Notes: a model not told the origin generated them from the letters alone. A stretch of 64,000 bases of DNA from an uncultured Alphaproteobacteria bacterium (GCA_913046035.1 CAJWSW010000002.1:4046-68045), one strand, 5' to 3'; counted from the first letter of the stretch, positions 8,722-60,596 are shown. Translations and numbers: made by a program.

Positions 8722-8886
8722 TTGGCGGAGCCGTCTTGGTCGTTCGTCAATATGATCCTCTGCGGCCTGCACGAGACAGGTGGGCACCGCATGTCGGGAC
8801 CAAGACCCCGACAGAGACAGTTCCCGAGAGAGTTGTATTGGCCCCAGGGATGCAAGGACGTGTCGCACCAGACAGCACCGCCGGAT
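8722..8886 (-). ncRNA. ssrS: Candidate 6S RNA (ssrS) in the conserved zapA-ssrS-ygfA arrangement
   Basis: A 239-nt non-coding gap between zapA and ygfA on the same strand. Minus-strand 5' segment CCGGCGGTGCTGTC (plus 8871-8884) can pair 11/12 with 3' segment GACGGCTCCGCC (plus 8724-8735), giving a closing stem about 165 nt apart. An internal GTCGGGGTCTTGGTCCCGAC hairpin sits on the 3' side of the putative central bubble. Boundaries are approximate. Confidence 0.45.
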
Positions 8887-23421: not shown

Positions 23422-24507
23422 ATGACCTCTCCCCTGCCACCTGGCGCGACAATTGGTATTCTTGGCGGCGGACAGCTTGGCCGTATGGCAGCATTGGCGG
23501 CATCCGATCTTGGCTACAAATGCCACATATTCAGCCCAGATGCAGATGCGCCAGCGAAGGAAGTGTCAGGGGCGCAGACAACCGCGCCATATGAAGATCT
23601 TGACGCCGCTAGAAAATTCGCGCAATCCGTGGATGTTGTTACATTTGAATTTGAGAATGTACCGGACGATGTATTGGCTGTTATCTCGGAGCTATCTCCT
23701 GTGCGGCCCAGCGCCGAGGCATTACATGTATCTCAAGACCGTCAAACGGAAAAGGCCTTCATAAATCGTCTTGGAATTTCTACTGCCCCTTGGGCTCCGG
23801 TCCTGGAACAGAGCGACCTGAGTACGGCTGCAGCCCAGACGGGATTTCCAGCGATTCTTAAAACTGCGCGCTTAGGATACGACGGTAAGGGGCAAGTGCG
23901 TGTTGATGCCAAATCTGATCTTATGGCGGCCTGGACAAGCATTGGAAAAATGCCTTCGGTACTTGAGGGTTTTGTAGATTTCGAACGAGAAATTTCCGTA
24001 ATTGTGGCGCGCAGTGTTGAAAGTAAAACAGAGAGCTACGTGCCCGTGGATAACGTGCACAAAGATCATATTCTCTATTCTACATCAGCGCCCTCTTCGG
24101 TATCTGAAGAAATTGGCGAAAAAGCAAAGCAGATTGCAGACAAAATCGTAACAGCCCTCAATCTTGTTGGCCTCCTCGCTGTGGAAATGTTTGTGATGCG
24201 GGATGGGAGTGTTTTGGTGAATGAAATAGCACCTAGACCCCACAATTCGGGCCACTGGACTATGGACGCATGCGCAGCAAGCCAATTTGAGCAGTTTATT
24301 CGCGCCGTTGTTGGTTTACCACTTCGGGATCCCTCACGCCATTCCAATGCTGTAATGACTAACCTCATAGGATACGAAGCTGACAGGTGGAAAGACTTAG
24401 CAGGAGAAGCGAGCACATGCCTACATCTCTACGGCAAAGCAAACGCCCTGCCTGGACGTAAAATGGGTCACGTCACCCGGCTTTTTCCAGCTAAAGGTTG
24501 TACATAA
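23422..24507 (+). CDS. purK: N5-carboxyaminoimidazole ribonucleotide synthase
   Basis: ATP-grasp. IGILGGGQLGRMAALAA N-terminus. 361 aa. Confidence 0.9.
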   Translation: MTSPLPPGATIGILGGGQLGRMAALAASDLGYKCHIFSPDADAPAKEVSGAQTTAPYEDLDAARKFAQSVDVVTFEFENVPDDVLAVISELSPVRPSAEALHVSQDRQTEKAFINRLGISTAPWAPVLEQSDLSTAAAQTGFPAILKTARLGYDGKGQVRVDAKSDLMAAWTSIGKMPSVLEGFVDFEREISVIVARSVESKTESYVPVDNVHKDHILYSTSAPSSVSEEIGEKAKQIADKIVTALNLVGLLAVEMFVMRDGSVLVNEIAPRPHNSGHWTMDACAASQFEQFIRAVVGLPLRDPSRHSNAVMTNLIGYEADRWKDLAGEASTCLHLYGKANALPGRKMGHVTRLFPAKGCT

Positions 24508-25148
24508 CGTTTTTTAATAACACCGGTAATGACGTTCAACGGACTCAGAACGCGATCACACGTGTGCTCAAAACGTTTGCGGGTAGCGTGTATTTTCATT
24601 ACGTCACTGATCCGTCTGGACAAAAACTCGCGAGTGTCAGAACACTCTTCGCTGCGATCGTCAAGCCAGAAAAGTAGGGTTGTCCCCACGACCCCTGCAA
24701 GGAGGCCGCGCTTAGTGTAGAATGAGAAATCGGCGGACCGGTCGCCGACGGCGTACCATATGTCATCAACTGTTTGATAGAGCAGCCGAGCCCCTAGCAT
24801 GCTGTTTTGAGGCATAGCCAGCCAAGTCATCCCGCGGTGGACCGCTTCCTTGTGGGGTTCGAGAAAATTCAGTCGCGTTTCTACCGCCAAGCCCACGCGC
24901 TCATGCATACGCATTTTTGTTAGATCCTCCTCCTCAATCGAGTGGACCATGTACCGGTCCGCCTGTTGAGAAAAATGTCGGATCGCATCTACAACCCCCA
25001 GAGGAAACTCCCGCGCGACACATTCTTTGTCAAAGCCCAAATCAGAGGCAGCGTTGTTAAGTGCCGTAGCAGACCAACCATCGAACGGGATATGGTGCAG
25101 AGCGGCACCGATAAGCGCATCGCGCTCAGCAAGTGTTTCCTCTGTCAT
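24468..25148 (-). CDS. COQ9-family protein (rpsU-divergently-transcribed protein)
   Basis: 226 aa. Position divergent from rpsU and downstream of def. Confidence 0.7.
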   Translation of the reverse strand: MTEETLAERDALIGAALHHIPFDGWSATALNNAASDLGFDKECVAREFPLGVVDAIRHFSQQADRYMVHSIEEEDLTKMRMHERVGLAVETRLNFLEPHKEAVHRGMTWLAMPQNSMLGARLLYQTVDDIWYAVGDRSADFSFYTKRGLLAGVVGTTLLFWLDDRSEECSDTREFLSRRISDVMKIHATRKRFEHTCDRVLSPLNVITGVIKKRYVQPLAGKSRVT

Positions 25149-26229: not shown

Positions 26230-27081
26230 GTGATGAGTGAAAAAAACGCCGATCAAATCGCATTTTGGAATAGTAGTCACGGCATAGCGTGGGCACGTAA
26301 TACCGACATTATAGATGTGATGTTTTCTGACATCACCGAAGCTATCGCAAGTGCGGCGGCGATCAATGTTGGCGATCATGTTCTTGATCTTGGCTGTGGA
26401 AGTGGTGGAACCATGCTCGCGGTGGCGAACCGAGTTGGCGCAGCAGGCTCGGTCACAGCAATAGATGTCTCCAACTCAATGATCGACCGTGCGGAAGAGC
26501 GATGTCGCGCTAAAAATTTGAAAAACGTCACGTGTATTCGAGGAGACGCTGCCTCCTATCCATTTTCCGACGCTTCTTTTAACAAATTGATTTCCCGTCT
26601 GGGCGCAATGTTCTTCGATGATCCTGCCGTTGCATTCACAAGACTTCGGCAAACACTTAAGCCCAGCGGACGCGTCGCCCTTGGAGTCTGGCGAGAACCT
26701 CGTGAAAACCACTGGGCAATGGAACCTGTGGCGGCGGCGAAGAAGTATTTAAATATGCCGCCTCGTCCCGGTCCCGAAGAGCCGGGCCCGTTCTCTTTCG
26801 CAAAACCAGATCGTGTCCGAAACATTCTAGCCGGAGCAGGATGGCGCGACATAGAGCTGTCGCCACTTAACTTCGTAATCCCACATGGCCGCTCGATAAC
26901 TGAAGCGCTTATCTTTGTGATGAGGATGGGTCCGCTTGCTGGGCCCCTATCCGAAGCAAGTGGCGAAAACCGAGTCAAGGCAATCGACGCTATCAAACAA
27001 GTATTGAAGAACAACACTGGCGACGACGGCATTGTCCGCATGGCAGGGGCATGCTGGATTGTTACGGCGCGGGCGGATTAA
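26230..27081 (+). CDS. Class I SAM-dependent methyltransferase
   Basis: VLDLGCGSGG motif I, 283 aa. Confidence 0.75.
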   Translation: MMSEKNADQIAFWNSSHGIAWARNTDIIDVMFSDITEAIASAAAINVGDHVLDLGCGSGGTMLAVANRVGAAGSVTAIDVSNSMIDRAEERCRAKNLKNVTCIRGDAASYPFSDASFNKLISRLGAMFFDDPAVAFTRLRQTLKPSGRVALGVWREPRENHWAMEPVAAAKKYLNMPPRPGPEEPGPFSFAKPDRVRNILAGAGWRDIELSPLNFVIPHGRSITEALIFVMRMGPLAGPLSEASGENRVKAIDAIKQVLKNNTGDDGIVRMAGACWIVTARAD

Positions 27082-27718
27082 AATGGCACACCTCTAGCGG
27101 CACATCATCGACGAAACGAGCGAGTGTATTGCGGGTCTCATTCAGCGAAATATTACTGTCGGCGGCCTCATTCACCACTATACGTTCAATCTGGATATTC
27201 CGCATATGCAACGCCTCAATCGCCGTAAGCGCGTGGCTTAAGCTGCCAAGATAGCTGCCAACGACTAGTACTACTGGCAAATCAATCGCAACCATTAGAT
27301 CGCGCATTGTGCGTTTTGCGTCTAGCGGCACCATCACGCCACCGGCTCCTTCTATGAGCAAACGGGCGCCGTCTTTTCGCGCATTTCTAATCGCCTTCCT
27401 ACAAAACTCAGTAATCTCGTCGACCGGCACCGTTCGACCCTCGAGTGCTGCTGCCATATCAGGAGACAATGGGGCAGCATATCGCCACGGCGAGATGCGA
27501 TGAATTGACTCCTCAATAGCATCTTCGCCTATGGCAGCGAGCAAAATACCGGTGTCACTCATCTGGGCAAAAGCTGGGTCAAAACCGCTGATCACTGGCT
27601 TTAAAACACGAACTACATCACCAGCGGCACGCCACTCACGGATCATTTTTTCGGCAACATAGGTCTTACCTCGGGCGGTGCCGCACGAAGTAACAAATAA
27701 CGCGCTCGCGTCAGCCAT
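27062..27718 (-). CDS. bioD: Dethiobiotin synthetase
   Basis: [24 protein letters not shown]-loop. Start at Met 27718, 8-nt overlap with bioF stop. Confidence 0.85.
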   Translation of the reverse strand: MADASALFVTSCGTARGKTYVAEKMIREWRAAGDVVRVLKPVISGFDPAFAQMSDTGILLAAIGEDAIEESIHRISPWRYAAPLSPDMAAALEGRTVPVDEITEFCRKAIRNARKDGARLLIEGAGGVMVPLDAKRTMRDLMVAIDLPVVLVVGSYLGSLSHALTAIEALHMRNIQIERIVVNEAADSNISLNETRNTLARFVDDVPLEVCHFNPPAP

Positions 27719-28898
27719 TGGTAATCTTGGACATGGACTCAAGATCCTCAATTAGGGGAATGACTGCGCCAACCAACGCGGCAACTTGTGCCTCCGTGTG
27801 TTCAGCAGTGAAGGTAAAGCGCAAACGCGACGTTCCAGCCGGAACCGTAGGGGGGCGAATAGGGGTGACAAGAAATCCACGTTCTTCCAGAAATTTTGAG
27901 GCGACGAGTGCCGCGTCTTCCTCACCGATAACCACCGGTACGATAGCGCTTTGAGGCGACGCAAGGCCCAATCTTGAGCAGAATAACTGCGCTAGCTTTA
28001 AAGGGCGCGCAACCCTCTCAGGGTCTCGCTGAATGATTTTAACACCCGCAATGGCAGCCGCAATCACCGATGGCGGTAGCCCGGTTGTATAAATTAAACT
28101 TCGGGCACGGTTTTTCATAAAATCGATAACCGAAGTTGATGCGCAAAGAAACGCGCCATAGCCGCCTACCGCTTTCGAGAGCGTGCCCATTTGTAATGGA
28201 ACATCTGGGTAAGGGTGATATTCAAAGGCGCTACCACGCCCCTCACCCAAAACGCCAAAGCCATGCGCGTCATCCACCATTAACCAAGCTTCGTGGTTAG
28301 TGCACAGATCTGCGAGAGTGTCTAAAGGAGCTCGGTCTCCATCCATGCTGAAAACACCTTCGGTCATCACAATACACTTGGCGACGAGGTTTCTTTCGCG
28401 TGAAAGAATTTCGGCAAGATCATCGGCATCGTTGTGGCGGAAGGTTAATATTTTTGCCCTTGAAGCTCGCGCACCCATGTACATCGATGCGTGTCCCAGG
28501 TTATCAATCACGATTAGATCTTCTGGACCGGCCAGCGCCGGCAAGATACCGCTATTTGCCATGTACCCGCTGCCGAAAACGCAGCTATCCTCAGTACCCT
28601 TCAACTCCGCAAGCCTTTTTTCAAGCTCGGCATAAAGCGGATTATTGCCGGTTATTAGGCGCGACGCCCCGGCGCCGACACCGTACAAAGCAATCGCCTC
28701 TGCAGCAGCTGCTTTCACCTCCGGGTGATGTGTCAGTCCAAGATAATCATTACAGCAAAAAGATATAAGGTCGCGCCCGTCACGCTGGATATGCACAGCA
28801 TCTGCTCTATAAGTTTCCACGACTGAGCGATACAACCCACGCGTGCTCAGGCTTTTGAGTTTGGATTTGGCGAACCGATCCAGCGATTCGTTAAACAT
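27711..28898 (-). CDS. bioF: 8-amino-7-oxononanoate synthase
   Basis: PLP fold-I, ...[12 protein letters not shown]... 395 aa. Confidence 0.9.
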
Positions 28899-28912: not shown

Positions 28913-29947
28913 GTGATAGCTTTTAGCGCCCTTAGTATAGCGTATATGAGTTCTCCATCGATCCCATCTGATTCCGCCAACGAGATACGCAACGATTGGA
29001 CTAAGACAGAAGCTCGGAAGCTGATCTCAGCGCCATTAAATGATTTGTTGTATGACGCGCAAAAAATCCACCGCAGATACTTCGATGCTAACGAAGTGCA
29101 AGTTTCCACGCTACTGAGTATTAAGACGGGAGGATGTCCGGAAGACTGTTCTTACTGTTCTCAGAGTGCCCATCATAAATCCGATGTTGGCGCCGAAAAA
29201 TTGATGTCGCTAGAAGCTGTCAGGGCGGCAGCCCTCCGAGCAAAAGACTCTGGCGCTACCCGATTTTGCATGGGTGCTGCTTGGCGCGGACCGAAGGATC
29301 ACGATCTCGACAATGTTTGCGATATGATTAGCGAAGTAAAGGCGCTTGGGCTTGAAAGCTGCGCGACGCTGGGGATGCTAAAAGATGGTCAAGCAGAGCG
29401 ACTTAAGGAGGCAGGCCTCGACTTTTATAACCATAACCTCGATACGTCCGAAGAATATTATGAAAAGATAATCTCAACACGGAACTTCGAAGATCGACTA
29501 GCTACCCTAGCGCGGGTTCGCCAAGCCGGTATTAACGTTTGCTGCGGCGGTATTTTAGGCATGGGAGAGAACCGACATGATCGCGCCGATATGCTGCAAG
29601 TCCTAGCCTGCCTACCGGAACATCCAGAGAGTATACCTCTTAATATGCTGGTGCCTATCCCCGGAACACCGCTTGCCGATACTGACCCACTAGATCCGCT
29701 CGAACTAGTGCGGGCCGTTGCGACGGCCCGTATTATGATGCCTAAATCGATGGTTCGGCTATCCGCAGGCCGGTTGGAGTTAGATCCATCTAGCCAAGCG
29801 CTCTGTTTCCTCGCTGGGGCGAATTCTATTTTCTATGGAGATACACTGCTGACAACCGGTAATCCCCAGCAGCGCGTAGATCAAAATCTGTTTGAAAAGC
29901 TGGGTGTAAGACCTGCGCCCCTGGATGCCACCAGCCCAGCAGAATAG
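28913..29947 (+). CDS. bioB: Biotin synthase (true start possibly at the Met near 28946)
   Basis: Radical [14 protein letters not shown]. 344 aa. Confidence 0.9.
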
Positions 29948-29950
29948 CGC

Positions 29951-31216
29951 ATGACTGAGGTGCAAACACCCCACCTCTGGCTGCCCTACACGCAGATGCA
30001 AACAACCGCTGCGCCGCTGCGAGCCGCCCGAACGGCAGGCACGCGGATCATCCTGGATGACGGACGTGAATTGATTGACGCAGTGTCTTCTTGGTGGACA
30101 GCATGCCACGGTTACAATCACCCCCACATCATTATGGCAATGGAAAAGCAATTGCAGGACATGCCGCATGTCATGTTCGGGGGTCTAGTGCATGAGCCAG
30201 CAGAACGCCTGGCAAGTCGCCTATCAGCGATGCTGCCGGGGCAACTTAACAGAGTTTTTTTTGCTGACTCTGGCTCCGTCGCAGTCGAGGTTGCGATGAA
30301 GATGGCGGTCCAATACTGGATAAACCATGGAAATGTAGGCAGAACACGTTTTCTTAGCTTCCGCGACGGATATCATGGAGACACACTGGCGGCAATGTCA
30401 GTCACGGATCCAGACGAAGGGATGCACGCATTATTCAAAGGTTACTTACCAGAGCAGATCATCGCGCCAATCCCGCGGGACGAAAGCTCCAAGGCCGAAT
30501 TGCATCGCCTGTTAAGTAACCACGGCCACGAAATTGCCGGTATTATCGTTGAACCTCTAGTACAATGCGCGGGGGGCATGAAAATGTATGCCCCGGAGGT
30601 TCTGAAATTTATTGCTGACGCCGCTACCGAGGCTGACGTCCTATTAATTTGCGATGAAGTTGCCGTGAATTTTGGACGTACTGGCACGCTGTTCGCGCAT
30701 TCCCAATCACCCATCATACCGGATATTATTTGCCTAGGTAAAGCTTTGACCGGTGGCGCTATTAATCTGGCCGCCACAGTCGCAAAGACAGACGTGTTCA
30801 ATGCATTTCTGTCTGAAAAAATCGACAATGCACTAATGCACGGTCCAACCTACATGGGCAATCCTCTTGCTTGCGCAGCAGCGAATGCCTCGCTGGACCT
30901 TTTTGAGACAGAACCGCGCTTACGACAGGTGGCGGCAATAGAGGCGCAGCTTAAGCGCGAGCTGAAACCGGTTGAAGGCCTGCCGGGCGTCGTGGATGTG
31001 CGTGTTAAAGGCGCTATTGGGGCAGTCGAAGTGGAAGAACTTCACAACCTCGAATGGCTAAAATTTCAATTCGTTGAAGCAGGCATTTGGCTTCGCCCGT
31101 TTGGTAATGTGATTTATACAATGCCGCCGTTTACCGTGACCTCTTCAGAGCTCTCCGAAGTAACTGCTGCTATAACGCAGATCTTACCGAGGTGGCATGA
31201 GAGAAATAATGAGTGA
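29951..31216 (+). CDS. bioA: Adenosylmethionine-8-amino-7-oxononanoate aminotransferase
   Basis: Class III aminotransferase, 421 aa, follows bioB. Confidence 0.9.
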   Translation: MTEVQTPHLWLPYTQMQTTAAPLRAARTAGTRIILDDGRELIDAVSSWWTACHGYNHPHIIMAMEKQLQDMPHVMFGGLVHEPAERLASRLSAMLPGQLNRVFFADSGSVAVEVAMKMAVQYWINHGNVGRTRFLSFRDGYHGDTLAAMSVTDPDEGMHALFKGYLPEQIIAPIPRDESSKAELHRLLSNHGHEIAGIIVEPLVQCAGGMKMYAPEVLKFIADAATEADVLLICDEVAVNFGRTGTLFAHSQSPIIPDIICLGKALTGGAINLAATVAKTDVFNAFLSEKIDNALMHGPTYMGNPLACAAANASLDLFETEPRLRQVAAIEAQLKRELKPVEGLPGVVDVRVKGAIGAVEVEELHNLEWLKFQFVEAGIWLRPFGNVIYTMPPFTVTSSELSEVTAAITQILPRWHERNNE

Positions 31217-31462: not shown

Positions 31463-32194
31463 TTGAACAAAAAAAGAAAATCTCCAGGAGCCATGACGAG
31501 CGACCGCATTGAACTTTCCGCGACCGACGACAGCGGAAAATTTTGCGCCTACCTTACCGCGTTGCCAGAGACGCCAGGGCCTGGTGTCGTGATGCTACAT
31601 GAAATTCTTGGCATCACGCCCTGGATACACGAAATCGCAAATCAATTTTCGGTACGAGGTTATTGCGTAACCTTTCCGGATATATTCTGGCGACTTCAGC
31701 CTAATTTTGTTGCCGATTACCGCATTCCCCTGCAGCGCGAGAGAGGACTGCAGCTTCGCAGCGAAATCAATCACGAGAAAGCTATCGATGATATCGCGAC
31801 AGTGATCGAACACCTCAAGGCGCTGCCTGAATGCAACGGCAAAATCGCAGTAGTCGGCTTCTGCATGGGGGGTACACTTGCTTATTTATCAGCGGCGCGG
31901 CTGAAGCCTGATGCTGCTATCGTCTATTACGGGACCGAAGTGCATAGGTTCCTAGATGAGGGCTTAAATATAAATTGCCCCACGATATTTCATGCTGGGG
32001 TTCGCGATCAACATGTACCGCTCGATCTTCTGAACACTATCAGGGGGGCTCTTGAAGGCTTACCGAGTGTGGCGTTCCACTTGTATGACGCGGATCATGC
32101 TTTCGCCAACACGCATCGACCGGAATTATTTCAAGCCGCACCCACAGAACGTGCCCACAAATTAAGTTTCAAATTGCTCGATACATTGTTTTAG
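31463..32194 (+). CDS. Dienelactone hydrolase family protein
   Basis: GVVMLHEILG...VVGFCMGG nucleophile elbow. Confidence 0.75.
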   Translation: MNKKRKSPGAMTSDRIELSATDDSGKFCAYLTALPETPGPGVVMLHEILGITPWIHEIANQFSVRGYCVTFPDIFWRLQPNFVADYRIPLQRERGLQLRSEINHEKAIDDIATVIEHLKALPECNGKIAVVGFCMGGTLAYLSAARLKPDAAIVYYGTEVHRFLDEGLNINCPTIFHAGVRDQHVPLDLLNTIRGALEGLPSVAFHLYDADHAFANTHRPELFQAAPTERAHKLSFKLLDTLF

Positions 32195-32319: not shown

Positions 32320-32937
32320 TCAAAACTGACCCGTAAAAACCCTAGCTCCATAAGTCTTCTCGATATACCGACCAAAACGGAATTTGATTTCAGGGCCATC
32401 CATCGGAGGCTCTTCTATCTCATGATCATCCGAGGTGAACGGGTCGACCTCTAAGACCACAAATCGGTGCCCGTCAGCGTTGCCACGAAACGCCTCATCA
32501 AAACCATTTTCAAGTTCATTCATCGTCTCAAAGGACCAAATACGCGTGAGGCCCATGGATTTCGCCATTGCGACATAATCGTTTGCGGACTTATTCGGTA
32601 AATCCAGGTCGGATGTTCCGCCATAGACACGGTTGGAAACAAGTACATGGGTTAGGTTCGGCAGGTCTAAGTCACGCTCGACCATCAGCATCCCCGGGTT
32701 CATGGCAAAAGCGCCGTCACCCATGAATGCCCAGACTTTAGCTTCGGGAATACCATATGCGATCCCAGATCCCAGCAATGTAGAAAGGCTCATCGAGGCG
32801 TCTAGATAAAAAACCCGGTCGGCATCATGGGTCACCTCCCACCACATCTGTGATGAATTACCTGCCGATGTCACGACCAGTTCGTTTGACCATCGACTTG
32901 CCAAAAATTGAAAGGCCGCTCGGTAGGGAATTGACAT
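32320..32937 (-). CDS. ThDP-dependent decarboxylase beta subunit (ComE/sulfopyruvate- or phosphonopyruvate-decarboxylase-like, PP-binding domain)
   Basis: GDGAFAMN...N TPP-binding motif. 205 aa. Confidence 0.7.
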   Translation of the reverse strand: MSIPYRAAFQFLASRWSNELVVTSAGNSSQMWWEVTHDADRVFYLDASMSLSTLLGSGIAYGIPEAKVWAFMGDGAFAMNPGMLMVERDLDLPNLTHVLVSNRVYGGTSDLDLPNKSANDYVAMAKSMGLTRIWSFETMNELENGFDEAFRGNADGHRFVVLEVDPFTSDDHEIEEPPMDGPEIKFRFGRYIEKTYGARVFTGQF

Positions 32938-32940
32938 CGT

Positions 32941-33453
32941 TTAAGCATCCCCCCGTAAGACATCGCGGGTAAAGATTGCCACAGTTGGCCTGCTTACCGT
33001 GCGGGAATGATCATAGATGCTTTTTATTTCTGGTATCTTCTCACTGCTATCAATGACCTTATAGGTCAAGCTAATAGCGTCTAGTGCAGGCAAGAAATAA
33101 AGCCCATTTGAGACATGAAACTTTGCCTTATCGCCAGGTGCCCCCCGAAGTGTAGCAAGGATCGTCAATGGAATTTCATAGGTATAGTTAATTTTAGTAA
33201 TGGCGTAGATCAGGGTCATTAAGCCAGACGCACCCATTACTGCTAGCGACCCTGTGCCGGATAAAAACGCGCCTGAACACAATCCGACAGCAGACTCTTC
33301 TCGGTTCACTGACAAATGCCGAAAGCGCTCATCAGCATCAAATTCTCGGATCACGGACGCCATCCAGTTGTCCGGCAGGCTCGCAACCAATTCAACACCG
33401 CAATCAACTGCTTGTTGCACAATAAGTTTTGCCACAGCCGCAGGATTGCTCAT
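32941..33453 (-). CDS. ThDP-dependent decarboxylase alpha subunit (ComD-like, PYR domain)
   Basis: 170 aa TPP_enzyme_N-like. 3-nt spacing to beta subunit. Confidence 0.7.
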   Translation of the reverse strand: MSNPAAVAKLIVQQAVDCGVELVASLPDNWMASVIREFDADERFRHLSVNREESAVGLCSGAFLSGTGSLAVMGASGLMTLIYAITKINYTYEIPLTILATLRGAPGDKAKFHVSNGLYFLPALDAISLTYKVIDSSEKIPEIKSIYDHSRTVSRPTVAIFTRDVLRGDA

Positions 33454-35081
33454 CCGAGGTCAAACCCCTCATATCCATTTTGAGCAATCGCCATGCATTT
33501 CGTAATATAGGGTGGCCAGCCACCAATGTACGGAGCGAAGACGCGAGCCTTACCCTCTACGTTTGATCCGACGTACCATGAGTCACATTTGACCCGCAGA
33601 GAGGCGTCAGCGGCCCTATTTACCTCTGCGTCCCAATCAGCCTCGGCCTGAGGCGTGGCATCAATACGCGTATAAGAGTTCGCGCGCATATACTCTAAAC
33701 AGTCTCCAATCCAGTCACCGTGTTGCTCGGCACAGGTAACCATTGTTGCCAACACCGACGGACTACCCGCACTGACCATGTTGAACATATTCGGAAAACC
33801 TGCAATAGACAGGCCCATATAAGTATGAGGTCCATCAGCCCACTTCTCCTGAATTGTTTGCCCGTTCGCACCCGTAATCTCAATCCGCGTTACACTACCG
33901 GTCATCGCATCGAACCCGGTAGCATAGATAATCATATCTAAATTGTAGTCCTTACCTTCAGCACGCAGCCCGGACTCCGTTAACATCTCAATGCCTTTAT
34001 TACTAATATCAACGAGAGTAACGTTGTCACGGTTAAACATTTCGTAATAATTTGTTCCGGCGCAAAGTCGCTTGCAGCCGAATATCTCGTCGGGCGTCAG
34101 TCGGTCGAGCACCTCGTCATCCTTCACGATTTCGCTTACGCGATCACGCCAATAGCCCGCGACCTCTTTATTAGCATCCTCGTTAGTAAGAATATCATTA
34201 AATCCGCCGAGAAAGGGTAAACCGCCTATTTCCCATTGTTGATCTAGTCGTTCGCGGCGTTCCTCAGGCGGAAGATCGAAGACAGACTGATCATAACGTA
34301 GAAAATTGAAAGCAGAATTCTCTGCGTAGGCCTGTCTTCGAAAGCCTTTGTAATCAGACTTGATCAAGTCGACGTCTTCATCACTTAGCGGTCGGTTTTG
34401 AGAAGGGACGACAAAATTAGGGGTCCGTTGGTACAGATAAACGTGGGCGGCTTCTTGCGAAATCAAAGGTGCGGATTGTATCGCCGATGAGCCCGAGCCT
34501 ATAATGCCGACGCGCTTACCGGTAAAGTCAACTGGCTCTTTGGGCCACAGACTGGTCTGGTAAATTTCACCGCGAAAATCGTTTTCTCCATCAAATTTTG
34601 GCCGTATGGGCGCGGAAAGGCAGCCAACACTCATAATAAAATAACGTGCGCGGATCACCTCACTTTCGTCGGTCTCTATAACCCAAAGATCATTATCTTC
34701 GTCGAAGGTTGCCTTTCCCACGCGGGTATTAAATGTGATATCGCGGTTCAAATCGTAACGTTCAGCCACGTGCTCGATATAAGCGAGAATCTCTGGTTGC
34801 GAAGCGTAGCGTTCTTTCCAGCGCCACTCTTGCTGTAACTCCTCGGAAAACTGATAGGAGTACTGCATGCTTTCAATATCGCAGCGAGCACCCGGATATC
34901 GATTCCAATACCAAGTTCCGCCGACGCCACTAGCTGAATCAAAGCACCGGGCAGTGAAACCACCCTGACGCAAACGATAAAGCATGTAGATCCCGGTAAA
35001 ACCTGCACCCACTACAACAGCGTCTACATCAATCGCGGTTTTCGTTAGCGGGGTGTACCTGTCTGCCGCCGTACTATTCAT
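33450..35081 (-). CDS. Type I Baeyer-Villiger (flavin-containing) monooxygenase
   Basis: GAGFTG FAD motif. Fingerprint FRGEIYQTSLWP. Second GSGSSA NADP motif. 543 aa. Confidence 0.8.
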   Translation of the reverse strand: MNSTAADRYTPLTKTAIDVDAVVVGAGFTGIYMLYRLRQGGFTARCFDSASGVGGTWYWNRYPGARCDIESMQYSYQFSEELQQEWRWKERYASQPEILAYIEHVAERYDLNRDITFNTRVGKATFDEDNDLWVIETDESEVIRARYFIMSVGCLSAPIRPKFDGENDFRGEIYQTSLWPKEPVDFTGKRVGIIGSGSSAIQSAPLISQEAAHVYLYQRTPNFVVPSQNRPLSDEDVDLIKSDYKGFRRQAYAENSAFNFLRYDQSVFDLPPEERRERLDQQWEIGGLPFLGGFNDILTNEDANKEVAGYWRDRVSEIVKDDEVLDRLTPDEIFGCKRLCAGTNYYEMFNRDNVTLVDISNKGIEMLTESGLRAEGKDYNLDMIIYATGFDAMTGSVTRIEITGANGQTIQEKWADGPHTYMGLSIAGFPNMFNMVSAGSPSVLATMVTCAEQHGDWIGDCLEYMRANSYTRIDATPQAEADWDAEVNRAADASLRVKCDSWYVGSNVEGKARVFAPYIGGWPPYITKCMAIAQNGYEGFDLG

Positions 35082-35147
35082 GGGTAAAATTTCTCCAAAC
35101 TGTATAACAATACGTCACGTTTCTTTATTTAGCGAAACAAACACAAT

Positions 35148-35606
35148 CTATCCAGAAACCGCTCGATCTGTCCCTTGCGCATCAATCAGGATCGCAGCAA
35201 ACCGACATGGGTCAGGCCCATTGTTGACCCAGTTATGACTGGTGCCACGCTGGACTAGCACATCACCTGCTTTTAGATGGACCGTCTCTTCATCTAATAC
35301 CATTTCCATTTCCCCGGACATAACGATCACGTAATCAACAGTCTCGGTAAAATGTGGTTCTGCAGTAACCCCGGGTTGAATTTCGATAACGCGCATTAAC
35401 GTGCCATTTTTAGGTGGTGGGCGACCAATTTTACGAGCCCCGGCATCTTCACCGCCGTCGTAGGAGGCGGGCGCCTCATCTGAGACCCAAATAAGGCGGG
35501 AATCGTGACCTGGACGCCGAGACGTTATGTTTGAGGCAATATCGTCGATAAGAACGCAGGATCTGCCCTGAGGGTTATGTCCTGTTACTACCCTTCTGAT
35601 TTCCAT
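35148..35606 (-). CDS. Cupin domain protein
   Basis: 152 aa. Cupin_2-like beta-barrel motifs. Confidence 0.55.
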   Translation of the reverse strand: MEIRRVVTGHNPQGRSCVLIDDIASNITSRRPGHDSRLIWVSDEAPASYDGGEDAGARKIGRPPPKNGTLMRVIEIQPGVTAEPHFTETVDYVIVMSGEMEMVLDEETVHLKAGDVLVQRGTSHNWVNNGPDPCRFAAILIDAQGTDRAVSG

Positions 35607-35669
35607 TTACCTGTCCTCTTGCCTTAGCATAATGCGTTGAAGCAGTCTTCTTGACACAAATGGTAGCGC

Positions 35670-37025
35670 TTAGTGTCGGTCTTTTGCCGAAATCCCGACC
35701 TTCTCGAGCGCAGACACTTGCCTCTTCGCTAAAGACTTAACGTCGAAATCACCAATTAAATCGTGGAACATTCGGTGCCAATTAATTTCAGCTTTTAGGT
35801 GCAAGAACACAGATCCCAGTCCGATTGCCGCCCGATCCATAAGGACGAATTCGCGGGGCGGCGTTACACCGCCGAGCCGACGCAATTCAGCGTGCACCTT
35901 GCCAGCCACCTGGGCGCCATACATTGTCCCATCAGTCTCTTGAATCTTTCGCGGTCGGTCCTCAAGCAGGGGGCCATATACAAATTCCGCCCAAATATTA
36001 AGAGTATCTAGCAACTCATTTGAAAGGTCAGAGAAACCCCAAGTCTCATATGCGTGAACGGCCAAATCCCGGTTTCCTGTTTCGATCGCGCGATAAAGGT
36101 CTATTACCCCTCCAACGAAAAGAGGATTGAAGATCCTAATACAGCCGAAATCCATCAGGTTAACTGAACCGTCCTCGCACACCGAATAATTTCCCAGATG
36201 CGGATCACCGTGAATAGTGCCGTAATAGTAAAATGGCACATACCATGCTCGGAACATATTTTCAGCCACGCGATTTCGCATTTCTAGCTCTGCATCAACC
36301 AATTCGAGCAACGGGACGCCGTCGAGCCATGTCATAGTTAGCAAGCGGTCAGAAGAAAGCTGCGGCAGCGGCAGCGGAACGTGCACGCCTGGCTCATTAC
36401 TCAGCATCGCCCGATATAAATCCATGTGCTTCCGTTCTAGCTCGTAATTAAGCTCCTCGCGTAAACGGTCTGAGACTTCTTGATGGATCTGGCTAAAATC
36501 TACCGCTTTATCATATCGGCCATAAATAGAGAAAACGATACGCAGCTGCTTTAGGTCGGCCTCAACCGCTGATTTCATATCAGGATACTGTAATTTACAC
36601 GCAAGATTTTTACCGTCTGGATGGACTGCGCGATGGACCTGTCCAAGGGAAGCTGCAGCAGACGCTTCCTTGTTAAATTCTTCGAATTTCTCTTGCCAGC
36701 CCGCGCCGAGCTCAGCCGCCATGCGTCTGCGGACGAAAAGCCAACCCATTGCCGGTGCATTTGACTGAAGTTCAGCCAACTCCGCCACATATTCCTCTGG
36801 TAATAAGTCCGGCACAGTAGACATGATTTGTGCGACCTTCATGAGTGGCCCTTTGAGCCCACCCAGCGCCTGTTTTAGATCCTCGGCATGCTTGCCCTTA
36901 TCCAAGCTGAGGCCAAGGTAACGCTCGCCGGCAACCCGTACGGCCAGTCCACCGACCGCACGTCCGACCTTCGCATACCGTTTTGCTCGGCCACCAAAAG
37001 AATCATTTTCCGAGGCATCTGTCAC
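35670..37025 (-). CDS. ABC1/UbiB/ADCK-family atypical kinase
   Basis: AAASLGQVHRAVHPDGKNLACKLQYP and HGDPHLGN motifs. 451 aa. Confidence 0.8.
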   Translation of the reverse strand: MTDASENDSFGGRAKRYAKVGRAVGGLAVRVAGERYLGLSLDKGKHAEDLKQALGGLKGPLMKVAQIMSTVPDLLPEEYVAELAELQSNAPAMGWLFVRRRMAAELGAGWQEKFEEFNKEASAAASLGQVHRAVHPDGKNLACKLQYPDMKSAVEADLKQLRIVFSIYGRYDKAVDFSQIHQEVSDRLREELNYELERKHMDLYRAMLSNEPGVHVPLPLPQLSSDRLLTMTWLDGVPLLELVDAELEMRNRVAENMFRAWYVPFYYYGTIHGDPHLGNYSVCEDGSVNLMDFGCIRIFNPLFVGGVIDLYRAIETGNRDLAVHAYETWGFSDLSNELLDTLNIWAEFVYGPLLEDRPRKIQETDGTMYGAQVAGKVHAELRRLGGVTPPREFVLMDRAAIGLGSVFLHLKAEINWHRMFHDLIGDFDVKSLAKRQVSALEKVGISAKDRH

Positions 37026-38866
37026 GGCATAGCTTCCAGTTCGTCAATCATCCCACGCACCACGTCGAGACCTCTTTGCCAAAAGTCCGGGTTGGATGCG
37101 TCAAGGCCAAAAGGTCTCAACAACTCCCTGTGACGCAAAGACCCGCCGGCCCGCAACATATCGAGGTATTTATCGGCAAATCCCTCGACAGATTCCCTAT
37201 ATATTCCATACAGAGAATTCACTAAACAATCGCCGAACGCGTACGCGTAAACGTAAAATGGCGAATGGATAAAGTGAGGAATGTAAGCCCAGTACCAGCG
37301 ATAGTGATCGTCAAATCGAATTGCAGGCCCAAGACTTTCTGTTTGGATTTCGATCCAAATATCGCAAATATCCTCGGCAGTTAGCTCACCCTCGCGCCGC
37401 GCAGCATGCACGCGGAGTTCGAAGTTAAAGAATGCGATTTGCCGAACGACCGTATTCAGCATGTCTTCAACTTTTCCTGCCAACATGACCTTTCGTATTG
37501 CTATATCTTCCTGTGTGCGGATCATTTCGCGGAATGTCAGCATCTCGCCGAATACCGAAGCCGTTTCAGCCAACGTCAGTGGCGTATCAGCCATCAGATT
37601 ACCCTGAGCTGCGGCAAGCACCTGATGGCAGCCGTGTCCCAATTCATGCGCCAGCGTCATCACATCGCGCGTCTTACCCTGATAGTTTAATAACAGATAT
37701 GGATGTGCTGACGGCACTGTAGGATGGGCGAATGCCCCCGACGACTTTCCATCACGGACCGGGGCGTCTATCCATTTATTTTCAAAAAACCGTTTACCGA
37801 TATTAGCAAGGTCGGGGGAAAACTCGCGGTAGGCTGCTAGCACGGTTTCCGTTGCTTGCTCCCAGGGTATTATTCGATTGTCAGCCTCTGGCAGCGGCGC
37901 ATTTCTATCCCAATGGTCAAGCTGATCTTTGTCAAACCACTTTGCCTTCATCGCATAGTAACGATGAGATAGATCAGGGTAAGCTGCAGTTACTGCGACG
38001 TTCAACGCGTCAACGACCTCATCTTCAACCTGATTTGAGAGGTTCCGTGATGACGCTGGATGGGCAAATTTCCGCCACCGGTCTTCAATCTCAGATTCCT
38101 TCGCAAGCGTGTTAGTGATCAGCGAAAATACTCTCGCATGTTTAGCAAGCTCGCTTCCTAATGTTGCCGCAGCCGATTTCCGGATGCCCTCATCAGGACT
38201 AGACATCATGTTCATGACCTCCTCCGAGGTCAACTCTGCTTCACCGTTCTTAAATCGCATGTCCGCCATTGTTTCATCGAACAAACGACTCCAAGCTGCC
38301 CTCCCCGCCACGCGCTTATCGTGCAGCAGGCGCTCAATTTCCTCGCTCAACTGATAGGGCCGGAAAGAACGAATACTGTCTAACCAAGGCTTGTATTTCG
38401 AAACAGTGGCCGCCTTCATCTGCTTTAGTAAGATGTGATCCTCTATCTCATTCAATTCCAACGAGAAGAAAAGCACGTCGGCAGAAATGTCGTTCACTCG
38501 TTCCTGCATAGACTGATAAAACCGACCAGCCTCGGGATCCGAGACATCTTCAGCGTAGACTAATTGAGCATAAGACATAATCCGGCCTATGATCTCGTCT
38601 ATAACTTCATACTCCGAAATGGCAGCACCCAAAGCGTCGCCTGACAAACTTGCTAGCTTGCCTTTGTAGCGATCCGAAAATATTCGTGATTCTCGCGCTG
38701 CCTCCTCCAAGTCTGCTTCTAGCTCAGCACTATCAGGGGCAGGATAGAGATCAGAAAGATCCCATACCGGCAGATTCCCGAGGGCCTTATCAGGCGTAGT
38801 GTTGGCGACGGCGGTAGTCATCTCTGGTTCCTTCAAGCTTAACACGATATAAGTTCCTAAAAGCAA
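37022..38866 (-). CDS. pepF: Oligoendopeptidase F family (M3B metallopeptidase)
   Basis: HELGHGCH zinc motif. 614 aa. Confidence 0.85.
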   Translation of the reverse strand: MLLGTYIVLSLKEPEMTTAVANTTPDKALGNLPVWDLSDLYPAPDSAELEADLEEAARESRIFSDRYKGKLASLSGDALGAAISEYEVIDEIIGRIMSYAQLVYAEDVSDPEAGRFYQSMQERVNDISADVLFFSLELNEIEDHILLKQMKAATVSKYKPWLDSIRSFRPYQLSEEIERLLHDKRVAGRAAWSRLFDETMADMRFKNGEAELTSEEVMNMMSSPDEGIRKSAAATLGSELAKHARVFSLITNTLAKESEIEDRWRKFAHPASSRNLSNQVEDEVVDALNVAVTAAYPDLSHRYYAMKAKWFDKDQLDHWDRNAPLPEADNRIIPWEQATETVLAAYREFSPDLANIGKRFFENKWIDAPVRDGKSSGAFAHPTVPSAHPYLLLNYQGKTRDVMTLAHELGHGCHQVLAAAQGNLMADTPLTLAETASVFGEMLTFREMIRTQEDIAIRKVMLAGKVEDMLNTVVRQIAFFNFELRVHAARREGELTAEDICDIWIEIQTESLGPAIRFDDHYRWYWAYIPHFIHSPFYVYAYAFGDCLVNSLYGIYRESVEGFADKYLDMLRAGGSLRHRELLRPFGLDASNPDFWQRGLDVVRGMIDELEAMP

Positions 38867-52012: not shown

Positions 52013-52930
52013 CTACTCGCCTAGATAGCGAAACCCGAAAGTGTCACCGTGCGGCACAATCAACCCCGCGGTTGGGTTTGGAAAGTGGGAGGGAAAAATC
52101 GTAACATCCGTGTCTGCATAACGATCCAAAAAGGCCGTTCGCGTCAACCGGGCCGCCTCCATATCAGCGCATGCGACTGTGCTCCAGTGCGGAATGTGAC
52201 ACTGGATCATATGGTGCATCATATCGCCGCAAAGAATTGCCTTGGCCCCGCCTGAACGAATGGATAGGCCAACCATACCGGGCGTGTGACCGGGTAACGG
52301 TTCCAGAACCAACCCATCATCCAATTGGTGATCCATATCAACGAGCACCTCCTGTTTTGCTTCGAGGATCGGTAAAACACTATCTACGATATAGTCACCG
52401 GTACGTGCCATCTGATCCTGTTCAGATTGTTGTTTCCAAAACTCCAGTTCTGCTTTTGCGAAAATATATTTTGCGTTCGGGAAGGTCGGTACCCAACACC
52501 CGTTTTCCAACCTGGTGTTCCAGCCAACATGATCAACGTGCATATGGGTACAAAGGACGTAGTCGATATCTTCTGGCGCAACCCCGAGCTTTAAAAAATT
52601 ATCCATCCACGGAAAATTAGCGTCATCAAACAGTTCCCGATTGCGCGGCTTGTGATTACCAACGCAAGTATCTACCAAAATCGTATGGCGAGGTGTCCGA
52701 ATTAGGAAGGCCTGAATATTGATAACTACATTGCCGGATACCGGATCATAATGACGTGGCACCATCCAGTCACGATGTGGGTCAATGGCAGCTTCATCCC
52801 AATCTGGGAAAAAAGTGGTAGCTCCAAGCATCGGCATCTCTATCTCTACAATTCGGGTGATAGTGATATCGCCGAAGGTGAAATCGAACATAGGCACTCC
52901 GTGTTTGACCATCATAGCGCCACTGCTCAA
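52013..52930 (-). CDS. MBL-fold metallo-hydrolase
   Basis: HMHVDHVGW (HxHxDH) motif. 305 aa. Confidence 0.7.
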   Translation of the reverse strand: MSSGAMMVKHGVPMFDFTFGDITITRIVEIEMPMLGATTFFPDWDEAAIDPHRDWMVPRHYDPVSGNVVINIQAFLIRTPRHTILVDTCVGNHKPRNRELFDDANFPWMDNFLKLGVAPEDIDYVLCTHMHVDHVGWNTRLENGCWVPTFPNAKYIFAKAELEFWKQQSEQDQMARTGDYIVDSVLPILEAKQEVLVDMDHQLDDGLVLEPLPGHTPGMVGLSIRSGGAKAILCGDMMHHMIQCHIPHWSTVACADMEAARLTRTAFLDRYADTDVTIFPSHFPNPTAGLIVPHGDTFGFRYLGE

Positions 52931-53035
52931 ACGCGATCAGCGCGCAATTCTGCCGTGAACTACACTAAGAAAGCGGCTACGCCTCAGCCTGCACTTTTCG
53001 AGAAGAGAAGCCTCACAAAATCTCGATTAATGGCT

Positions 53036-53899
53036 TTATTTCTCGTTACGCACCGGATTAGAGAGCAATCCAACCCCCTCGATCTCGACCTCGCACGTAT
53101 CGCCCTGCTTCATAAATATTGGCGGTTTTCTGACAAAGCCAACGCCCGGCCCGGTTCCGGTCAAAATGATATCGCCAGGCATCAACGTGATCGCACGCGC
53201 AAGTTCGTAGACCAGTGTCTTCACGTCAAACACCATTTCCCGGGTATTAGTTACTTGCAGAACGTTCCCATTTAGCCGCAGCTCGACGTCCAGCCCCTTG
53301 GCGCCAGCGGGTAATTCATCAGCTGTAACAAAATCTGGGCCTATCGAACCGGACGAGTCGAAGTTCTTGCCTATTGTCCATTGTGACGCCTTCATCTGAT
53401 AGTCACGAATGGAGCCTTCATTGGCCACCGAGTATCCAGCGACATAGTCGAGGGCCTCGGATTTCTTTATATTACGGGCCTTCTTGCCAATCACAGCAAC
53501 CATCTCGGCTTCATAATCAAAATGCTTCGATGCCTTGGGACGAATTAGGGCCTGACCATGAGCGACGAATGAGGTCGTAAAACGGGTGAACACGACAGGA
53601 TAAGTAGGAATCTTTAAGCCGGCCTCCGCGGCATGGTCTTTATAGTTGAGACCAATACAGAAAATTTTATCGGGTTTCTGTATCGGTGTAAGGTAGCTTA
53701 CGCGCCCTTTAACGACCGCGCTTGGCTTTGCTTTCCTGGCAGCGCGCCCAGCACGCTGCATTGCGCCCTTACCTTGTGCAATCAGCCCCTTCAGATCTGT
53801 AGGTATCTTCTTATCGACCTTCGACAGGTCTACAAGCCCGGCATCGGTTCGCACCCCAATCTTATTCTTGCCATCTTTTTTGAAAGAAACGAAACGCAT
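53036..53899 (-). CDS. Fumarylacetoacetate hydrolase (FAH) family protein (2-keto-4-pentenoate hydratase-like)
   Basis: 287 aa FAH-fold, ...DYEAEMVAVIGK... metal-binding region. Confidence 0.8.
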   Translation of the reverse strand: MRFVSFKKDGKNKIGVRTDAGLVDLSKVDKKIPTDLKGLIAQGKGAMQRAGRAARKAKPSAVVKGRVSYLTPIQKPDKIFCIGLNYKDHAAEAGLKIPTYPVVFTRFTTSFVAHGQALIRPKASKHFDYEAEMVAVIGKKARNIKKSEALDYVAGYSVANEGSIRDYQMKASQWTIGKNFDSSGSIGPDFVTADELPAGAKGLDVELRLNGNVLQVTNTREMVFDVKTLVYELARAITLMPGDIILTGTGPGVGFVRKPPIFMKQGDTCEVEIEGVGLLSNPVRNEK

Positions 53900-54003
53900 T
53901 GAAAACCCCCGTTTTACATATTGTTCTTAAGATACTTGAGCCAGCATTTGCTGAAACTGGACGCGAAACCTAAACCATCGCACCCCTCATTCAAGCTGTT
54001 TCC

Positions 54004-54693
54004 CTATTGTAGCTCGTAGCCCTTCTCATAGTGCAAGTAAATGCCGTCAAAATAGAACCAGCGCATACGAGCACTTTCACGCGCGAAGTAGATAGCAGCC
54101 TCCTTCATTTCTGGAGTAGTGCAATGACGTTCAAGAATCTCAAACCCCCTGTTACTATGTTCAATATCTACTTCGGAGTGCAGCCAGAAATGTTTTATCG
54201 CCTCTTCATCAAAATTGTAGTTATCCCGTAGCGAGGGCAGCACCCGGCTGTAAAGTCTTGGCGACTGAGATTCTGTGCCGATCCGTATGGCGGCCACCCC
54301 GCAGTACCAATCTTCCTCTCTCGCAACCTTCTTTAACCAATCCGCCCAGGAGCGCGTTGTTGGGAGCCCCTCACCTGCCCTTACGGTTTCGAGATCGGCG
54401 CCATTGGCTTTCGCAAACTGCAGAACAATCTCCATATGAGGTTCGTCAGGATCTTCTTCTTCATGAAAATTCTCTAGCTCCAGCTCGATAACGTCGTTTG
54501 GTGCCTTTGCACAGATTTGAAACGTCGCCTCTGTTAACATGTTCGATATCCAGTGATAATGCTCGACTGCCCAACCCATGCAGGCATTGCGACCTAAATT
54601 ACCAGCTGCCAATTCGTCCCACATAGGATGATCAGCGCAGTGGCGCTCATTCACAGCGTCTTCTAAGGACTGTCTGAACGCTGATTTATTCAT
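54004..54693 (-). CDS. TenA/PqqC-like heme-oxygenase-fold protein (iron-containing redox enzyme family)
   Basis: 229 aa all-helical. His/Glu-rich helices (AVEHYHW...EEDPDEPHMEIVLQFA...WLHSEVDIEH). Confidence 0.55.
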   Translation of the reverse strand: MNKSAFRQSLEDAVNERHCADHPMWDELAAGNLGRNACMGWAVEHYHWISNMLTEATFQICAKAPNDVIELELENFHEEEDPDEPHMEIVLQFAKANGADLETVRAGEGLPTTRSWADWLKKVAREEDWYCGVAAIRIGTESQSPRLYSRVLPSLRDNYNFDEEAIKHFWLHSEVDIEHSNRGFEILERHCTTPEMKEAAIYFARESARMRWFYFDGIYLHYEKGYELQ

Positions 54694-54868
54694 AATCGTT
54701 TCCTTCCAATACGATTAAATCGGGAGAGCTAGATAAAGAATTCATATCCCGGCCCCGGTCCAATTTTGTAGGCAGTTATTCATGAATTCAAGCTCAGTGA
54801 CTAACTTTGTCTCCGCAAGCTAATCGCCCCGTTTGTCAGCCCTTCCTAACATAGGAAACCGGAGGCAT

Positions 54869-54982
54869 ATGATGAACGAAACTAATGGCTTGGAACACGA
54901 CACTAGTACACACCTCAGACTACGCCAGGAATTTCTAATCCGTCAGCTACAAAAGCTATATTTCGCTTTTGTTTATAGATAG
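54869..54982 (+). CDS. Hypothetical 37-aa small ORF with strong SD (GGAGG-N5-ATG)
   Basis: MMNETNGLEHDTSTHLRLRQEFLIRQLQKLYFAFVYR. Below the ORF-track size cutoff. Sits in a 480-bp gap inside the minus-strand cluster. Speculative. Confidence 0.2.
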   Translation: MMNETNGLEHDTSTHLRLRQEFLIRQLQKLYFAFVYR

Positions 54983-55176
54983 GCTGAGTTTGATCTCACG
55001 TAATAGAATATGCCGTTCGCCGCGTTCTAAATGACGACAAAACCGCTTCATAATCTCCGTCAGAAAGCATGATCTAACTCAAAGACCCAAAGAGCAGACG
55101 AGTAAAGGCGCCGGAGTGACCAACAAAAAACGCACTCCTGTCGAGCTATCCCAACATCTTGTTCGGCTTTCTCAAT

Positions 55177-56514: not shown

Positions 56515-56628
56515 GCTATATCCTCCTAAGTGCTTACTGCGCAGTATATATTTGACTGCAAATAGATTTTGGCCCTTTTAAAGACCAATTGCTAGCCGCA
56601 ATGTAAAGTGCACTACATTGATAAGCTC

Positions 56629-58374: not shown

Positions 58375-58378
58375 CGGA

Positions 58379-60454: not shown

Positions 60455-60596
60455 AAAAGTTCCCGATCAAGTCTCCGAAAATTAGTCGGCTATTATACTC
60501 CCTATTCGGAGCGTTTGGTCAAATCGTGACTAAGCAATGCTGCCTGAAATACATCCAAAGCCATTAGGGCGGCTTAAAAATTAATGAAAAAGAAGA

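Follow-up and report, generated by a model that had tools for sequence, protein, structure and literature searches.

Whether a flavin monooxygenase and a thiamine diphosphate (ThDP)-dependent decarboxylase whose genes overlap also share a pathway is the question raised by a block of six minus-strand genes at 32320-38866 of a 64,000-nt stretch of DNA from an uncultured Alphaproteobacteria bacterium (CAJWSW010000002.1:4046-68045; hereafter the window). The block encodes the two subunits, alpha and beta, of a split ThDP decarboxylase, a type I Baeyer-Villiger monooxygenase (BVMO), a cupin, an ABC1/UbiB-family atypical kinase-like protein, and an M3-family oligoendopeptidase (pepF). The reading favored here, with a probability of roughly 0.45, is that the block is made up of juxtaposed units, of which cupin-BVMO-alpha-beta forms a small oxidative module with the BVMO functionally linked to the decarboxylase. 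The more general finding is an uncharacterized decarboxylase family and its partnership with molybdenum (Mo) hydroxylases.

The alpha subunit (32941-33453; 170 amino acids [aa]) matches Pfam TPP_enzyme_N and constitutes the pyrimidine-binding (PYR) domain with the catalytic Glu, and the beta subunit (32320-32937; 205 aa) matches Pfam TPP_enzyme_C (E = 3e-12) and constitutes the diphosphate-binding (PP) domain; the two domains lie on separate polypeptides from adjoining genes, 3 nt apart as read directly from the sequence. Homologs of alpha number more than 1,400. The loci compared with the window comprise 80 from a scan of one genome per species, plus five from context look-ups, minus three duplicates, giving 82 (designated by L numbers), in which open reading frames (ORFs) were called with a filter on third-codon-position G+C content (GC3) and anchored by tblastn with the six window proteins as queries. 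By tblastn, beta directly follows alpha in 82 of 82 related loci. The catalytic Glu of the NREES motif is invariant across 83 alpha sequences, VNREESA and TKINYTYE are invariant in the alpha family, and the motif GDGAF...N (GDG-X26-N) is conserved in 79 beta sequences, in keeping with the GDG-X(24-27)-N signature of PP domains. The two genes form an obligate pair whose ThDP motifs are intact in all relatives, and the original prediction of a split ThDP enzyme of ComDE/Ppd-type architecture holds in domain content and cofactor motifs.

The identity of the enzyme within that architectural type is another matter. ComD and ComE are the best NCBIfam matches of the two subunits, but alpha scores 91.2 bits against ComD (TIGR03845; cut-off 147.95) and beta 80 bits against ComE (TIGR03846; cut-off 221.5); against Ppd (TIGR03297; cut-off 312.5) the subunits score 60.7 and 57.8 bits (57.8 for beta). 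Among solved structures, the nearest resemble alpha only remotely (9u8q, E = 8.5e-13; RhiE, 9iz3, E = 5.9e-12), and no paper mentioning the structure PDB 9U8Q was found. In a library of representatives at 50% identity, 17 match at E <= 1e-30 compared with 987 at E <= 1e-3, so the alpha/beta family is compact and distinct. Judged from sequence, alpha/beta are best regarded as an uncharacterized decarboxylase family that is neither ComDE nor Ppd. The names given to its relatives by JGI are 'sulfopyruvate decarboxylase', and cluster look-ups returned the same automated labels only. The best 80 genome matches for alpha (one genome per species; L006-L085) are all metagenome-assembled genomes (MAGs); the absence of cultured isolates from this set may be the reason for the lack of characterization.

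The neighbors of alpha/beta were counted within 6 kb in the 68 loci that lie outside the marine alphaproteobacterial clade to which the window belongs. A xanthine-oxidase/CoxL-form-II-type Mo hydroxylase large subunit is present in 37 of the 68, on the same strand in 25, and a class II aldolase-like protein in 28; these are followed by a TctC receptor (22 loci), an SsuA-like binding protein with an ABC transporter (11), an ILVD-family dehydratase (nine), a TRZ/ATZ-type amidohydrolase (seven), and a TauD-like dioxygenase (three). No BVMO occurs in any of the 68. The typical gene order outside the marine clade is class II aldolase-like protein, Mo large subunit, alpha, beta; the commonest partner of the alpha/beta family is a Mo hydroxylase rather than a BVMO. 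In four Deltaproteobacteria MAGs (L025, L027, L036, and L076) a TRZ/ATZ-type amidohydrolase and a solute-binding protein accompany alpha and beta, and in three of them (L027, L036, and L076) a three-subunit Mo hydroxylase is encoded convergently to the block (large subunit, 2Fe-2S subunit, and FAD-binding subunit); the L025 sequence is too short to show the corresponding region. As a separate observation, DUF1989 proteins recur near alpha/beta (four loci) and also adjoin a cupin homolog and a full-length ThDP enzyme 5 kb from a stand-alone BVMO; the loci with DUF1989 are L029, L041, L078, and L174, together with L086-L089.

These neighborhoods bear on the proposal, embodied in the automated labels and in the best NCBIfam matches, that alpha/beta act in catabolism as a true sulfopyruvate decarboxylase (ComDE), which would deliver sulfoacetaldehyde to oxidizing enzymes for marine or soil organosulfonate use. 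Genes annotated as comDE are reported to be expressed in marine SAR116 and Planktomarina (bioRxiv 10.1101/2024.12.10.627767), and some relatives of alpha/beta lie near transport and oxidation genes that would suit such a role: in 11 loci (for example L033, L043, and L067) SsuA-family-like binding protein and ABC genes lie upstream of the aldolase-Mo-alpha-beta genes, in three (L046, L052, and L072) a TauD/TfdA-family dioxygenase lies directly downstream of beta, and TRAP or TctC transporters occur as well. Curated cut-offs are not reached by the SsuA and TauD matches, however, which are confined to a minority of loci; the subunit scores fall far under the equivalog cut-offs, and the dominant partners, Mo hydroxylase and class II aldolase-like protein, lie outside the known sulfolactate pathways. 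The window, of which 57 ORFs covering nearly all 64 kb were scanned (outside the scan lay short ORFs, five of them below 9.8 kb and two at about 19.2-19.8 kb, plus two ORFs within the region of the Mo large subunit), likewise speaks against it: no gene for phosphoenolpyruvate (PEP) mutase, xsc, pta, sulfolactate dehydrogenase or other sulfolactate function, suyAB, cuyA, coenzyme M synthesis, or a sulfite exporter was found among those 57, in agreement with the earlier observation that no PEP mutase, sulfolactate, or coenzyme M genes are nearby. A true ComDE is accordingly improbable, and a sulfonate substrate for alpha/beta is possible but not favored.

A gene for a probable Mo partner is also present in the window, 29 kb from alpha/beta. 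A Mo hydroxylase large subunit of the xanthine-oxidase/CoxL-form-II type is encoded on the plus strand at 61823-63994, truncated by the window boundary (Pfam Ald_Xan_dh_C, MoCoBD_1, and MoCoBD_2). It carries the form-II-like motif AYRGSGR, is 64-66% identical to Xanthobacteraceae Mo subunits encoded directly upstream of alpha/beta, and in a tree nests inside the clade of alpha/beta-linked Mo subunits. The window protein is likely an ortholog of the alpha/beta-adjacent Mo enzyme of other lineages, and it is probably an unlinked partner of the decarboxylase. Next to the Mo gene, on the minus strand at 52013-61664, lies a run of genes for a metallo-beta-lactamase (MBL)-fold hydrolase, an FAA-family hydrolase, a TenA/heme-oxygenase-like protein, a PreA-like protein (DHO_dh plus 4Fe-4S), hydantoinase/oxoprolinase B and A, and a VanA-type Rieske oxygenase; this catabolic run looks like an island for degradation of N-heterocycles or hydantoins. 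An exact-sequence look-up of the window BVMO and the Rieske protein matched no record.

The monooxygenase itself (33450-35081, minus strand; 543 aa) is related over its full length to steroid monooxygenase (STMO; 4ap1) and phenylacetone monooxygenase (PAMO; 1w4x), at E ~1e-170. Both Rossmann motifs (GAGFTG and GSGSSA) are present, and GGTWYWNRYPGARCD matches the pattern [A/G]GxWxxxx[F/Y]P[G/M]xxxD; by these sequence features the protein is classed as a genuine type I BVMO. The fingerprint FxGxxxHxxxW[P/D] is replaced by FRGEIYQTSLWP, in which a Gln is aligned with the STMO His. The Gln-for-His form, F.GE.YQTS.WP, is common to two sister BVMO clades that together make up the whole marine subfamily (L007-L024; P0146-P0207), and BVMO homologs of 65% identity or less keep the His. 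One of the sister clades is the alpha/beta-adjacent set, and the other stands alone.

The pairing of BVMO with alpha/beta belongs to a single lineage. The marine clade consists of 15 loci including the window, with alpha at least 71% identical, in MAGs named UBA830, UBA7314, and Rhodospirillaceae; pepF, ABC1, cupin, and BVMO genes of the window type are found beside alpha/beta in this clade only. Eight of the 15 (the window, L007, L008, L009, L012, L013, L017, and L024) have the complete order pepF-ABC1-cupin-BVMO-alpha-beta, six (L006, L010, L011, L014, L015, and L016) have the cupin without the BVMO, and one (L001) has neither. The 4-nt overlap of BVMO stop and alpha start, ATGA when read directly in the window sequence, recurs as ATGA or GTGA in L007, L008, L012, and L013, which bears out the earlier claim of translational coupling, and it has been retained in these five genomes although the proteins are only 72-79% identical. 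The genes are about 25 nt apart in L017 and L024, and in L009 they are separated by 2 kb of inserted DNA that carries a PAS gene on the opposite strand. In a marine-clade tree the cupin-plus-BVMO state is found on all deep branches, and the BVMO-less loci form one clade; a single ancestral acquisition followed by a single loss therefore accounts for the distribution, which implies that BVMO coupling is ancestral to the marine clade and was lost once. Within this clade the BVMO-ThDP coupling is more than chance.

Checked in related genomes, as the original prediction had proposed, co-conservation of BVMO and decarboxylase proved limited to those eight loci of one clade. To the absence of a BVMO from the 68 non-marine loci is added the reciprocal result that alpha, beta, cupin, ABC1, and pepF occur in none of 86 BVMO-anchored loci. 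None of 80 loci from a metagenome scan with BVMO patterns (GGTWYWN and CDIESMQ) contained alpha/beta; these patterns are too generic, returning mostly proteins of 42-54% identity, and the scan serves as a negative control and not as an ortholog census. A literature search found no paper joining 'sulfopyruvate decarboxylase' with 'Baeyer-Villiger'. The BVMO pairing is an accessory arrangement of one lineage and does not amount to a conserved general pathway.

How far this arrangement reflects function is best weighed against the possibility that the BVMO is a mere neighbor, inserted in an ancestor, carried along by synteny, and co-transcribed by position while acting on an unrelated substrate, with alpha/beta working with the unlinked Mo hydroxylase. 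The double absence of the pairing elsewhere, the tolerated insertion in L009, and the presence of a Mo ortholog in the window would all fit, whereas the overlap kept in five diverged genomes and the preservation of the arrangement across the deepest splits of the clade speak for linkage. Several further points count against a functional link. The BVMO was cleanly lost from one subclade, and alpha/beta remain intact and unchanged there. The closest outside relatives stand alone: the sister BVMO (for example P0163, about 74% identical) is a monocistronic gene flanked by genes for a peroxidase and a DHDPS-family protein, and homologs at 64% identity are also solitary, one of them amid insertion sequence (IS) elements. 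No esterase gene that could serve as partner for the BVMO is present by the locus. The evidence that would tie BVMO to alpha/beta consists of their adjacency, the overlap, and the vertical inheritance of the arrangement; pepF, ABC1, bioA, and bioB, core genes on either side, are retained equally well, so synteny alone could explain retention of the BVMO. The trees, among them that of the marine clade (pepF, ABC1, alpha, and beta), are midpoint-rooted neighbor-joining trees without support values, and the SsuA-like (11 loci) and TauD-like (three loci) neighbors would suit a sulfonate substrate instead. With these points taken together, mere proximity is a serious rival that is nonetheless less likely than linkage, and the linked cupin-BVMO-alpha-beta module is retained as the preferred reading.

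The remaining three genes of the block are unequal companions of alpha/beta. The cupin (35148-35606, minus strand; 152 aa; Pfam Cupin_2, E = 4e-13) is present in 14 of the 15 marine-clade loci and is a more faithful neighbor of alpha/beta there than the BVMO. A 35%-identical homolog lies inside a same-strand alpha/beta cluster in L023. A general role as alpha/beta partner was considered for the cupin and ruled out, homologs of 54-68% identity being found in unrelated contexts. One 54%-identical homolog (L175, 1743-3436) lies 3 nt upstream of a gene for an FAD_binding_3 (group A) flavin monooxygenase, the second case of such an arrangement. The ABC1 protein (35670-37025, minus strand; 451 aa; Pfam ABC1, E = 3e-53) scores 158.6 against the UbiB equivalog TIGR01982 (cut-off 487.55) and is not UbiB proper, so that the assignment extends to the ABC1 domain only. 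The M3 peptidase (37022-38866, minus strand; 614 aa) matches TIGR02290 with 662 bits (cut-off 561.7) and scores 311.7 against the pepF equivalog TIGR00181 (cut-off 490.55), and is not oligoendopeptidase F proper. A COQ9-domain protein is encoded on the minus strand at 24468-25148, 10 kb from the ABC1/UbiB-like kinase; in other organisms the two families have ties to ubiquinone biosynthesis.

The original prediction took the six genes for one operon and suggested a route from a 2-oxoacid through an aldehyde or ketone to an ester or acid; if the operon were dedicated to that route, peptidase, kinase, and cupin would be pathway members. The coordinates and spacing on which it was founded are as claimed: the genes are co-directional, pepF and ABC1 share 4 nt (37022-37025, from coordinates), BVMO and alpha likewise share 4 nt, and the largest gaps are 63 nt between ABC1 and cupin and 66 nt between cupin and BVMO. 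A promoter and terminator scan of the block region gave no signal above chance and no convincing internal terminator, and an Rfam scan gave no informative match inside the block. The comparison with relatives nevertheless speaks for two units. Every marine-clade locus pairs ABC1 with pepF, yet neither gene lies beside alpha/beta in any of the 68 non-marine loci; in L017 and L024 an opposite-strand acyl-CoA-ligase-like gene divides ABC1 from the cupin; and in L006, L010, L011, L014-L017, and L024 a promoter-like element, TTGATC-N17-TA(A/C)(A/T)GT, lies about 40-70 nt upstream of the cupin start. This element, which is less clear in the 63-nt cupin spacer of the window itself, suggests that cupin-(BVMO)-alpha-beta has a predicted promoter of its own. 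Because of the opposite-strand split and the promoter-like element, pepF-ABC1 is probably a separate unit from cupin-BVMO-alpha-beta; with a surrounding region that is otherwise core genome, a single coherent six-gene operon is very improbable.

In the mechanism proposed here, the block would thus comprise two units: pepF-ABC1, a conserved pair of housekeeping type, and cupin-BVMO-alpha-beta, an oxidative module around a heterodimeric ThDP decarboxylase. Alpha/beta would remove CO2 from an alpha-keto acid or from a heterocyclic carboxylate that resembles one, and the carbon left with a C-H bond (an aldehyde or a heteroaromatic CH) would be oxidized next. In most lineages this oxidation would be carried out by the Mo hydroxylase, whose ortholog in this genome would act from its unlinked position 29 kb away; in the marine lineage the NADPH/O2-dependent BVMO may serve the same route as an accessory or alternative oxidant of the aldehyde or ketone product. 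Of the two-step route from decarboxylase to BVMO that was first suggested, the ThDP enzyme type, the coupling, and an old arrangement in one clade stand; general co-conservation does not, and the usual partner is a Mo hydroxylase. A more speculative extension, which on present evidence is doubtful as a whole, is that alpha/beta and a CoxL-form-II-like Mo hydroxylase could form a widespread decarboxylate-then-hydroxylate system for keto-acid-like, possibly N-heterocyclic, carboxylates, and that one oxic-ocean Alphaproteobacteria clade recruited the Gln-fingerprint BVMO to the Mo position in the operon as a Mo-independent O2/NADPH oxidant.

The genomic setting of the block is syntenic core DNA, with bio genes past beta and an acyl-CoA ligase gene past pepF. 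The biotin cluster comprises a BioC-like methyltransferase gene (26230-27081, plus strand), bioD and bioF (27062-28898, minus strand), and bioB and bioA (28913-31216, plus strand), and bioA is followed by a gene for a DLH/YghX-like hydrolase (31463-32194, plus strand). The hydrolase was considered as the esterase of the BVMO and ruled out: its gene runs in the same direction as bioB-bioA, shares an overlap with bioA in L001, and also occurs in loci that lack the BVMO. In this lineage the hydrolase may act as the pimeloyl-ACP methyl ester esterase. The remainder of the window consists of core genes of Alphaproteobacteria (tolQR, ruvABC, yebC, thiE, efp, purEK, def, gapR, trcR, and genes for glycolate oxidase and pyruvate kinase). 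The sole Rfam match in the window is a 6S (SsrS) RNA at 8724-8881 on the minus strand (65 bits; gathering score 46.4).

Proteobacteria of soil and sea commonly carry the decarboxylase family, and annotation pipelines automatically label it 'sulfopyruvate decarboxylase', a label that is in use to infer organosulfonate cycling from ocean metatranscriptomes. If the function of the family differs, as its Mo-hydroxylase and amidohydrolase neighbors suggest, those inferences need correcting, and the family would provide a further example of ThDP chemistry of the LumK/LumL kind, discussed below, that is open to characterization. The BVMO coupling is a small, lineage-limited variation that can serve as a natural test for the replacement of a Mo hydroxylase by a flavin monooxygenase.

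Among characterized enzymes, PAMO and STMO resemble the window BVMO in full-length homology, in both dinucleotide-binding motifs, and in the GGxWxxxxYPGxxxD motif; they differ in the fingerprint His, which is Gln throughout the marine subfamily, and the window BVMO has no adjacent esterase gene. Two-subunit ThDP decarboxylases were known earlier from ComDE in coenzyme M biosynthesis and RhiEF in rhizocticin biosynthesis (PMC12141560). ComD/ComE (EC 4.1.1.79) have in common with alpha/beta the division into a PYR subunit (about 170 aa) and a PP subunit (about 190-205 aa), encoded in the same order with tight spacing, but the window subunits are well below the equivalog cut-offs, have no coenzyme M or sulfolactate context, and keep other conserved neighbors. 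RhiE/RhiF and the fused Ppd (EC 4.1.1.82; PDB 9IZ3) provide a similar heteromeric ThDP architecture (E = 5.9e-12 for alpha and 3.1e-7 for beta), but identity is only about 30%, and no gene of the PEP_mutase family is found among the scanned window ORFs.

The third case, published in 2025, is LumK/LumL of Nocardioides simplex lumichrome catabolism, whose substrate, a quinoxaline carboxylic acid, is decarboxylated as a mimic of an alpha-keto acid; the amidohydrolase LumM acts before LumK/LumL, and the xanthine-oxidase-type LumJ then hydroxylates the freed carbon (PMC12746152). The window differs from the Lum system in having its Mo gene 29 kb off and a BVMO in the upstream position, and in lacking Rieske, P450, and catechol dioxygenase genes beside alpha/beta; LumJ is a fused 140-kDa enzyme, whereas the Mo large subunit of the relatives is separate and CoxL-form-II-like. 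Compared by context and not by sequence, the relatives of alpha/beta resemble the Lum system: LumK/LumL is a two-subunit ThDP decarboxylase of about 20 and 23 kDa encoded beside a Mo hydroxylase, as the Mo-alpha-beta association in 37 of the 68 non-marine relatives and the TRZ/ATZ amidohydrolase in seven of them recall. By analogy, the LumM-LumK/LumL-LumJ order of reactions may be mirrored in the Deltaproteobacteria MAGs, where amidohydrolase, binding protein, alpha, beta, and Mo hydroxylase are encoded together.

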